44,849 nucleotides of DNA from Dehalococcoidales bacterium (lineage in GTDB: Bacteria; Chloroflexota; Dehalococcoidia; Dehalococcoidales; RBG-16-60-22). Within the stretch, counting starts at the first letter, position 1. The number at the start of each line of letters is the position of its first letter. Of this stretch, positions 31,007 through 33,483 are shown one piece after another. A program made the translations under genes and the position numbers. Below the pieces are notes generated by a model. It was given only the letters and a program-made list of their open reading frames with translations, was not told the DNA's origin and did no database searches. Location of the stretch: the NCBI GenBank assembly GCA_028712355.1, contig JAQTQH010000005.1, positions 1-44,849 on the forward strand. Reading direction: 5' to 3'.

Positions 31007-33483
31007 TATTCTTTTTCACCAATCAGTTTTAAAAATTCAGCTTCAGTAAGTTGCTTGATACCCAACTCCTGAGCTTTTGCCAGTTTAGAGCCGGGCTCCG
31101 TACCAACGACGAGATAAGTCGTCTTCTTACTGACGCTGCCGCCGGCGGTCCCGCCCAGCACGCGGATTTTCTCCTCAGCCTCATGGCGGGAAAATTTATT
31201 GAGCGTGCCGGTGATGACGAACTCCATGCCTGCCAGCGGCTGTTTTTCTTTTTTTGCCTCTTCCGTCAGCCGTACACCGGCATTCTGGAGCTTTTTAATA
31301 ATGTTACGGTTCTCTTCCTGCCGGAAGAAGATGGCGATGCTCTCGGCGATTTTGGGACCAATGGCGTCAATAGCCTTTAACTCCTCTTTTGCATCTAGAA
31401 TCTTAAGCTCCTCTTTTACAGTTTTTCTCTTGAGCTTCTCTCTCATATCTAGAGCCTTAATCTCTTCTCTTGTAGCTTTAATCTTAAGGTTTTCTATTGC
31501 AGCTTTAACCTTAAGGTTTTCTCTTGCAGCTTTAGCCTCAAGTTTTTCTCTTGCAGCCTTAGCCTTAAAATCTTCTCTTGCAGCTTTAGCCTCAGGCTCC
31601 TTTTTTGCATCTAGAATCTTAAGCTCCTCTTTTACAGTTTTTCTCTTGAGCTTCTCTCTCATATCTAGAGCCTTAATCTCTTCTCTTGTAGCTTTAACCT
31701 TAAGGTTTTCTCTTGCAGCTTTAGCCTTAAGGTTTTCTCTTGCAGCTTTAGCCTCAAGTTCCTCTTTTGCAGCCTTAGCTTTAAGGTTTTCTCTTGCAGC
31801 TCTAGCCTCAAGCTCCTCTTTTGAAGCGTTCATCAATTCTTCAATGCTGTGAAATTCGCTCGCCAGAAGCTGAGCGACCTCCTCGCCGACGTGGCGGATG
31901 CCGAGGGCAAAAATAACCCGCGCCAGGGGGCGGTCTTTGCTCTTTTCAATCGCTTCCAGTATATTACCGATGCTCTTTTCGCCTTTTTTTTCAAGTTGAA
32001 GCAGCTGCTCCTTTTTATCTTTGAGGTAATACAGGTCGGCAACATCTTTGACCAGTCCTTTATCCAGCAGCAAGGCGGCGGTCGATTCGCCGATGCCGCG
32101 GATATCCATCGCAACTCGGGAAGTGAAGAGCTCCAACTGGCGTTGGAGCTGCGCCGGGCAGGCGGCATTGGAACAGTAGTACATCACCTCTTCTTCCGGC
32201 TGGTAGACCTCCGCGCCGCAAACCGGGCAAGCCGGGCGTCCCTTATCTTTATCATAAATTTTCTCCAGCAGGGAAAATTCTTTTGACGCTGCAGGGCGTT
32301 TTTCTTTGATGGGTGCCACGACCTCGGGAATCACCTGTCCGGCGCGCTGGACAATCACGGTATCTCCCTCCCTAATATCCTTGCGGCGGATGTCATCCTC
32401 GTTGTGGAGCGCCGCGCGGCTGATGGTGACGCCGCCCACATTGACCGGCTCCAGAATAGCGTAGGGGTTCAGCGTACCCGTACGCCCTACGCTGATGCCG
32501 ATTTCTTTCAGAATGGTAGTTTCCTGGGTGGCGGGGAACTTGTAGGCAATCGCCCAGCGCGGCTCGTGTCCCACGTCGCCCAGCTCTCGGTGCAGCCGCA
32601 ACTGATTGATTTTTATCACGGTGCCATCGGCTTCATAAAGGAGGCTCTCCCGGTTCATTAGCCAATCCTGATGATATGCTTCCGCCTGCTCGATGGTAGC
32701 CACGAGGCGGTTATGCGGGTTGGTTTTAAAACCGAGCGAGTTGAGGTACTGCAAAATCTCCCACTGGGTATCCGGTATTGCTCTACCTTCGGCGTAACCA
32801 ATATAGTAGATGTAGATATCCAGCGGGCGCTTTGCCGTGATGCGGGGGTCGAGCTGTCGCACTGAACCTGCCGCCGCATTACGGGGATTAGCAAAAAGAG
32901 ACAGACCCTCGGCGGCGCGTTCCTGGTTGAGCTTCTGAAAGCCGGTTTTGGGCAGAATGACCTCCCCGCGAACTTCGAAGTGGGGTGGGGTGTCTCCGGG
33001 TACGGAAAGCGGCACGCTGCGGATGGTGCGCAGATTCTGAGTGATGTTTTCGCCGCGGTAGCCATCGCCGCGAGTCGCGCCAATGGTGAACTGCCCGTTG
33101 ATATAGGTGAGCGCTACCGCCAGTCCGTCGTACTTATGTTCACAAACAAAATCGAAATTTTGGTTGCCCGCCAGTTTTACCGTGCGGTTGTACCAGGCAA
33201 TCAATTCATCCCGGTTGAAGACGTTGCCCAGCGATAGCATCGGCACGGGGTGTTCCACGACGCCGAAGGCGGCCACGGGCGCGGCCCCGACCCGCTGGGT
33301 GGGGGAATCAGGCGTGAGAAATTGAGGGTATTGCTCTTCAAGTTGCCTCAGTTCCCGCATCGTGCTGTCATATTCGGCATCGCTGACTTCCGGATTGTCC
33401 AGGACGTAGTAACGGTAGTTGTGGTGGTTAATCCGTATCCTGAGCTCGTCTATTCTTTTATGGGCTTCTTCCGGATTTTCCAT
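31006..33483 (-). CDS. ligA: NAD-dependent DNA ligase LigA with a ~135-aa repeat insertion in the HhH region
   Basis: 825 aa. The adenylation motif is CEHKYDGLA, the Zn finger is [15 protein letters not shown], and the HhH (GIRHVGE) and C-terminal BRCT (FVITGTL) regions are present. The repeat block lies between ..NASKEELEA and [18 protein letters not shown]. Confidence 0.93.
31375..31833 (-). repeat. In-frame tandem array of 17 x 27-nt units (9 aa each, about AKAARENLK) with a higher-order 216-nt duplication
   Basis: Units are phased exactly every 27 nt from 31375 to 31833, e.g. CTTAAGGTTTTCTCTTGCAGCTTTAGC. The block 31387-31491 reappears essentially identically at 31603-31697, an offset of 216 nt (8 units). 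Confidence 0.9.

Follow-up and report, generated by a model that had tools for sequence, protein, structure and literature searches.

The 44,849-nucleotide (nt) stretch analysed here, referred to below as the window, is contig JAQTQH010000005.1 (positions 1 to 44,849) of the Dehalococcoidales bacterium assembly GCA_028712355.1, a genome whose source is a landfill metagenome; the names borne by close homologues likewise place the organism in Dehalococcoidales. The window carries a gene, ligA, for an NAD-dependent DNA ligase of 825 amino acids (aa) with 17 in-frame copies of a 9-aa unit inside its last helix-hairpin-helix (HhH) motif. We consider it likely that this is a functional LigA in which a native helix has been multiplied into a hairpin arm, that the arm varies in length by whole units, and that the repeat array is patchily distributed within one family and has been exchanged by recombination.

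The ligA gene lies at 31006–33483 on the minus strand and was assigned from its open reading frame, its NCBIfam and Pfam domains and its match to Escherichia coli LigA (2owo). The protein exceeded the NCBIfam LigA equivalogs NF005932 (814 bits) and TIGR00575 (786 bits). Pfam found all six domains in canonical order, with the NAD-binding Ia domain (PF22745, 2.5e-09) and the adenylation domain (PF01653, 2.3e-90) followed, all above cut-offs, by the OB domain (PF03120), the four-cysteine zinc finger (PF03119), the HhH domain (PF12826/PF14520) and the BRCT domain (PF00533, 7.5e-14), the last of which is intact at residues 748–821 (31021–31242, minus strand). Residues K117, D119 and G120 of the KxDG motif fall in invariant alignment columns. 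The window LigA resembles the canonical enzymes of E. coli (2OWO/5TT5) and Thermus filiformis (1DGS/1V9P) in having the Ia, NTase (KxDG), OB and zinc finger domains, four HhH motifs and a BRCT domain, but differs in length, at 825 aa against about 670–690 aa in E. coli and nearly all Dehalococcoidales relatives. The excess length pointed out in an initial annotation of this DNA is real by comparison even within the genus, where genome G001 has a 682-aa open frame with no insert.

The array accounts for a net excess of 144 aa, inside the last HhH motif. HMMER aligned the protein to 2owo (E=2e-172) in two stretches, query residues 7–559 and 700–822, which meet at E. coli residues 544–547. The insert thus falls between 2owo residues 547 and 544, with EEL at both edges, inside HHH_2, which is the last HhH motif. 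On the upstream side is the native flank of residues 531–552 (31828–31893, minus strand), which takes in helix 2 of HhH motif 3 and the first part of the connector helix. On the downstream side, the hairpin and second helix of HhH motif 4 (residues 706–721; 31321–31368, minus strand) retain the invariant G709, K711, I712 and S715.

This ligA is the sole ligase gene found in the genome. A genome-wide search of the 1.53-Mb bin (80 contigs, 96% complete) gave one match to the adenylation domain PF01653 and hence no second ligA, and the ATP-dependent ligase domain PF01068 had no match anywhere in it. The initial annotation had raised the case of a second intact ligA elsewhere with this copy not expressed; with neither a second ligA nor an ATP-dependent ligase found, a spare ligase copy was ruled out. 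Since the array-bearing LigA is the only ligase found in a 96%-complete genome, we infer that it must work as an enzyme.

Read in frame, the array comprises 17 units of 27 nt at 31369–31827 (minus strand; residues 553–705) with the consensus A-A-R-E-E/N-L-K-A-K. The unit number, the period and the absence of a frame break described in the initial annotation were confirmed by this reading and by Tandem Repeats Finder, with the array now placed at these positions. Tandem Repeats Finder reported a 27-nt period at 31453–31814 (13.4 copies, 74% matches, 0 indels) and a 216-nt period at 31381–31823 (2.1 copies, 93% matches, 0 indels, score 795). For 31375–31833, self-identity reached 0.715 at an offset of 27 and 0.90 at one of 216, compared with 0.25–0.30 at the other offsets between 24 and 30. 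The layout is one of two 8-unit blocks and then one final unit. Block 1 holds units 1–8 (residues 553–624; 31612–31827, minus strand) and block 2 holds units 9–16 (residues 625–696; 31396–31611, minus strand). The two are 94% identical, with 213 of 227 positions agreeing at offset 216, in line with the recent 8-unit duplication that had been proposed. A recurrence of about 105 nt reported with that proposal stands as essentially unchanged sequence and not as an exact repeat, the exact repeat being 95 nt long, with copies at 31387–31481 and 31603–31697. Unit 9 (DAKKEPEAK; residues 625–633; 31585–31611, minus strand), the central unit, contains the sole proline of the array, and its codon represents a CTT to CCT change relative to sister units. 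The GC content of the array is 0.39, against 0.55 in the remainder of ligA, because of its K/E/A/L composition.

We compared the unit with the same site in array-less relatives, which reads L-A-x-A-[S/T]-R-E-E/Q-L-M-[S/A]-[I/V]-x-x-I-G-P-K-I-A and spans the last HhH motif from helix 1 through the hairpin to helix 2. The unit, A-[A/T]-R-E-E-L-K-A-[K/L], matches native helix 1 of HhH motif 4 (A-S/T-R-E-E-L-M-x-I), and the array keeps the family's usual codons (GCY, TCA/ACA, AGA, GAG and CTT). This agreement supports growth from the gene's own sequence and, judged on residues and codons together, the unit is shown to derive from LigA's own native helix. The first helix of the fourth HhH motif would have been multiplied in frame to 17 copies, with 27-nt units gained and lost whole, singly or as blocks, by slippage during replication or by unequal recombination, which we infer to be the mechanism of growth. 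The 8-unit (216-nt) duplication would be the latest event in the window array. The initial annotation had likewise suggested that the array grew from the gene's own sequence by slippage. The matching helix and the AGA and CTT codons bear out the origin, and slippage does not hold as the sole route, the array of genome G237 having been acquired by homologous recombination (see below).

The structure of the window LigA was predicted using AlphaFold2 with a 50-sequence alignment, and its secondary structure and per-residue confidence (predicted local distance difference test, pLDDT; mean 78.5) were examined. The model has the standard LigA fold, matching 2owo, 5tt5 and 1dgs. The array was predicted as two long helices, residues 547–625 (79 residues) and 630–698 (69 residues), with pLDDT of about 83–90. 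The sole break between them is at 626–629, where A-K-K-E precedes Pro630, in unit 9 of 17 and at the junction of the 216-nt blocks. The predicted outgoing helix is composed of block 1 and the native connector helix, and the returning helix is block 2. A second array-bearing LigA, P0037, gave a helix at 553–597, a break at EGLKA near the middle and a helix at 603–632. Because the insert is inside a compact domain and both of its ends must rejoin that domain, the array would form an arm of two antiparallel helices, roughly 110 Å long. The connector helix and helix 1 of HhH motif 4 make up a small surface helix-turn-helix in ordinary LigA, and the array would lengthen both of its sides, extending about 75 residues out, turning at the single proline and returning over about 70 residues. 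The arm would leave the catalytic core, all four HhH hairpins and the BRCT domain in place. A long charged helical arm that leaves the HhH and BRCT folds intact had been suggested earlier, and the model agrees with it in predicting two helices and in matching solved LigA structures over the remainder of the protein.

The composition of the array is 52% charged with a net charge of +14, and its 153 residues include 24 opposite-charge pairs at i+4 and 19 at i+3. The hydrophobic moment is 0.10 at period 3.5, 0.29 at 3.6, 0.89 at 4.5 and 0.74 at 9. A heptad coiled coil was rejected, as the array is without a 3.5/3.6-residue hydrophobic periodicity. Its high charge, i/i+4 pairs and lack of a hydrophobic seam are those by which single alpha-helix (SAH, E/R/K) sequences are recognised, and by sequence it resembles such charged single helices more than a classical coiled coil. 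One such K/E/R-rich single helix, the KER helix of CAF-1, is described in PMC10335832 as binding DNA in a length-selective manner; the LigA array shares with SAH domains of this kind a K/E/R/A-rich composition, i/i+3 and i/i+4 pairs, no hydrophobic seam and predicted long helices. It differs from them in being placed mid-domain, so that the chain must return, in its 9-residue period, and in being predicted as a two-helix hairpin rather than a single rod. Long antiparallel helical arms are also found on other enzymes that act on nucleic acids, such as the N-terminal arm of seryl-tRNA synthetase and the coiled coil of GreA/GreB, which are ancient, of fixed length and encoded by non-repetitive DNA. 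The predicted LigA arm is similar to these in protruding as two helices, of the order of 100 Å, from a nucleic-acid enzyme, but it appears young, repetitive and variable in length, and is absent from the sister species.

The insert was absent at this site in all 40 relatives searched, including the same-genus G001, whose LigA is 85% identical. A word-seeded HMMER search with residues 545–715 identified eight other LigAs (P0002–P0009) with 9-aa arrays at exactly the same site, and further searches added the array-bearing P0037 and P0287 and the genome G237. In total about ten other Dehalococcoidales LigA clusters carry 6–18 units at the site, with the consensus AKATRE(K/G/E)LK, and the array-bearing LigAs derive from metagenomes in NCBI, ENA and JGI, marine sediment among them. 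The comparison of ligA length among relatives that the initial annotation had called for thus returned both an array-less sister species and other LigAs with 6–18 units. Among 363 species genomes of the order, the array is present in just two, the window genome and G237. A class-level sample of 401 genomes yielded no LigA array outside the window's own genome, and a class-wide genome scan gave two weak matches only, in small non-LigA frames. A profile search over 1.84 billion representatives recovered mainly HhH fragments, unrelated repeat proteins (P0128, P0132, P0167) and other HhH expansions; it is ill-suited as a census, because Dehalococcoidales LigAs fall into few 50%-identity clusters. 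In a LigA tree built without the array columns, two pairings join an array-bearing LigA to an array-less one, namely the window LigA with G001 (support 100) and G237 with G005 (support 99); six array-bearing proteins group in a single clade, and P0002 lies among array-less genomes. The trait needs at least 3–4 gains or losses on this tree. On the sequences sampled, the array is patchy within one Dehalococcoidales family.

We also compared array lengths between near-identical genes. P0277 (835 aa), P0282 (799 aa) and P0004 (772 aa) belong to one 90%-identity cluster, have 18, 14 and 11 units, respectively, and differ at only 1–4 of 675 non-array residues; P0278 carries 9 units. Similarly, P0037 and P0287 are identical outside the array and have 10 and 6 units, a difference of 36 aa. 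Assemblies of two separate JGI samples both contain P0277 in its exact 835-aa form. The protein cluster of the window organism's own LigA has one member. As assembled, near-identical LigAs differ in length by whole units, with the caveat that all of these are short-read assemblies; some of the shorter forms may be collapsed, because they are always sub-sets of the longest form. Two further members of the cluster, P0280 and P0281, have unrelated C-terminal sequence after the first HhH motifs and are likely to be chimeric or frame-shifted contig ends close to the part that bears the repeat.

Evidence for lateral exchange comes from G237. A codon alignment of its ligA with that of G005 gave 91–94% DNA identity across the gene. 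Over the 69 nt immediately preceding the array, however, G237 is 67% identical to G005 versus 83–86% to P0277, P0037 and P0003. In the base-by-base view the upstream breakpoint lies near residue 530–540 and the downstream breakpoint immediately after the array. This switch in identity and the two breakpoints show that the array and about 45 nt of upstream flank were imported into a G005-like ligA by homologous recombination. P0002 has a similar mosaic at the protein level, its HhH domain being nearer to the P0003/P0004 group than to its tree neighbours.

The import into G237 raises the question of whether the window array itself was imported, or inherited from an array-bearing ancestor, with the array-less relatives having lost theirs by scarless collapse to one unit. 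We regard this as quite possible, if somewhat short of probable. Besides the precedent of G237 and the mosaic in P0002, window units are common to array units of other lineages at 47–50 of 54 nt, including a stretch ending (M/T)RE, and the four codons after the window array (A-I-D-A) are closer to those of array-bearing lineages than to G001. The upstream flank gives the opposite signal, as it is 83% identical in DNA to G001 versus 58–62% to array-bearing LigAs and contains no trace of a donor; G237, P0002 and others share the sequence LAQKFN[DN]L[DE]ALAKA here. In addition, the unit consensus differs (AARENLK in the window versus ATREKLK), and AID is also native in the array-less relative G031. 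The comparison of flanks and units cannot separate growth in place from import, because the whole family conserves the native DNA from which an array would be founded, and independent arrays would look alike anyway.

Several points weigh against the account of a functional LigA with a recombining, unit-variable hairpin arm. The packing of helix against helix is deduced from the break at the centre and from the requirement that the HhH domain be closed, and AlphaFold2 tends to give confident helices for sequences of this type. The exact copy number of 17 rests on short-read assembly, and the length differences among relatives may be partly attributable to repeat collapse. The flank signals for in-place versus imported origin of the window array are mixed. 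Finally, between blocks 1 and 2, which differ at 18 codons, the proportions of nonsynonymous (pN) and synonymous (pS) differences are 0.091 and 0.089, a ratio of about 1 that is based on few changes and speaks against strong constraint on residues, not against constraint on composition. Since pN is about equal to pS, the individual residues of the array appear to be weakly constrained.

What the arm does, if anything, bears on a further reading, in which it is a functional module under selection, either a positively charged extension or ruler that binds DNA and increases affinity for, or processivity on, nicked DNA, or a dock for a partner such as the clamp or polymerase, with its length tuned by copy number. 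In its favour, the arm has a net charge of +14 and adjoins the DNA-binding HhH hairpins; in-frame arrays of helix-friendly composition persist in about eleven clusters, whose samples include landfill and marine sediment; both structural models have a helix-breaking residue near the middle, a proline in the window LigA and a glycine in P0037; the cassette was fixed in G237 after lateral import; and the K/E/R-rich single helix of yeast CAF-1 is a proven length-selective DNA binder (PMC10335832). On the other side, the arm is absent from the sister species and from 361 of the 363 species genomes in the order, the assembled copy number ranges from 6 to 18 and varies even between near-identical genes, pN is about equal to pS between the blocks, and there is no conserved motif beyond the unit itself. 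We therefore think that a selected functional module is unlikely. A more specific form of it, in which the arm is a selected, length-tunable accessory of the ligase, a charged hairpin lying on DNA beside the nick or on a replisome partner, adjusted by units and spread as a recombination cassette, seems to us less likely again. The loose array length and the absence of the arm in the sister species favour a tolerated or mildly modulatory extension, and we rate the arm as such rather than as required.

We next consider whether the array itself or the number of its copies could be an artefact of assembly, arising by expansion or chimerism in a short-read metagenome bin, a concern that the initial annotation had raised. 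A tandem array that includes an exact 95-nt repeat is a classic place for mis-assembly, and the bin consists of 80 contigs. Two landfill runs, X1 and X2, contain the sequence. Contigs from re-assembly of X1 matched the window with zero mismatches at 31207–31416, 31387–31538, 31515–31632, 31698–31754 and 31731–31905. Six zero-mismatch X1 contigs cover each distinct part of the array, including, at 31515–31632, the junction of block 1 and block 2. The contigs break at the exact repeat only and reveal no alternative joints, although none covers the word-level junctions that lead from the second copy of the repeat into 31698. The depth of the repeat-containing contig is 11.6 on a background of 6–10, which fits two repeat copies. 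The X1 re-assembly is very probably from the same reads, and so is independent of the assembler and not of the sample. X2 has a depth of only about 2.4x and its contig ends within the array, at 31409. Further, the 95-nt repeat is probably below the typical short-read length, which we assumed for this library, the reading frame is kept across the whole array, and arrays at the same site were assembled in independent studies. The agreement of the re-assembled contigs with the window confirms that the array is real and not a one-off artefact, and we judge an artefactual array or copy number to be very improbable.

The weakest reading, to which we give hardly any credence, is that the array is an on/off (phase-variation) contingency locus or a mobile repeat element (resembling a MITE or a Rickettsia palindromic element, RPE) inserted in frame. 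Phase variation usually acts on coding tandem repeats, but a 27-nt unit keeps every copy number in frame, which excludes on/off switching, and an OFF state of the sole ligase gene found should be lethal. The hypervariable, contingency-like tract proposed in the initial annotation thus survives, indirectly, as candidate hypervariability, since assemblies of near-identical relatives differ by whole units, and not as on/off contingency. A mobile element was rejected because there are no further copies of the array in the 1.53-Mb genome, where its sole match is the array itself, and the unit is derived from the gene's own helix and is not palindromic.

Other departures from the ordinary LigA architecture were seen during these searches. 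In two other genera of the same family, loci L030 (G014:C14:47400-50100) and L031 (G007:C8:31000-33600) encode a LigA with a non-repetitive insertion of ~85 aa between the first two HhH motifs (LYYLKEADLADIRNLVKSI...WDDVLTLEKLAEKSA), conserved across both genomes. In other lineages, the LigA-like proteins P0126, P0129, P0127 and P0250 have whole (HhH)2 modules in 3 to about 7 copies before the BRCT domain, a pattern of module-level expansion of the HhH domain, and the LigA fragment P0197 has a ~75-aa low-complexity, probably disordered insert at the array site. This corner of the HhH domain seems, from such sequences, to be generally permissive to insertions. P0113, a 731-aa Dehalococcoidales LigA, has a partial duplication of ~49 aa in the adenylation domain (GEDITQNLITIRGIPLSVS), either real or an assembly artefact. 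Contigs C46 and C11 of G001, a genome with 7% contamination, hold extra LigA fragments that are 43–48% identical to the window LigA; these are probably from a contaminating organism and not a paralogue.

Directly downstream of ligA is pth, an open reading frame for peptidyl-tRNA hydrolase at 30428–31006 on the minus strand, and the ligA stop and pth start share 1 nt (31004–31008). Array-bearing relatives also have the gene order ligA-pth-enolase, with an additional gene of 160 aa separating pth from enolase in some of them.

Coding repeats of variable number are typical of surface or secreted proteins. The LigA array is like other such repeats, for example those with copy-number variation in Mycobacterium tuberculosis (PMC12817950), in that the unit length is a multiple of three and higher-order duplications occur, and the assemblies of near-identical genes suggest changes of whole units. 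It differs in lying inside the folded DNA-binding domain of the sole replication ligase, where the unit is itself a structural helix. A full-text literature search aimed at tandem repeats in LigA or in Dehalococcoidia ligases found no description of such arrays.

Essential replication enzymes are usually treated as structurally frozen, and here such an enzyme, LigA, has a predicted repeat arm of ~110 Å. It is unusual that the arm would be made from the enzyme's own DNA-binding helix, that its assembled length differs between near-identical genes and that it has moved between lineages through recombination. The array may serve as a clean example of a protein-coding minisatellite born in a folded domain of a housekeeping enzyme. 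Annotators and curators of metagenome-assembled genomes may take ligA length outliers at this site as real biology, prone to copy-number error. The natural series of 0, 6, 9, 11, 14, 17 and 18 units could be used to probe how much extra structure the HhH clamp tolerates, and could also show whether a charged arm alters DNA binding or processivity, which would be useful for ligase engineering. Were the arm a selected and tunable one, it would represent a rapidly evolving, laterally exchangeable structural module within an essential replication enzyme.

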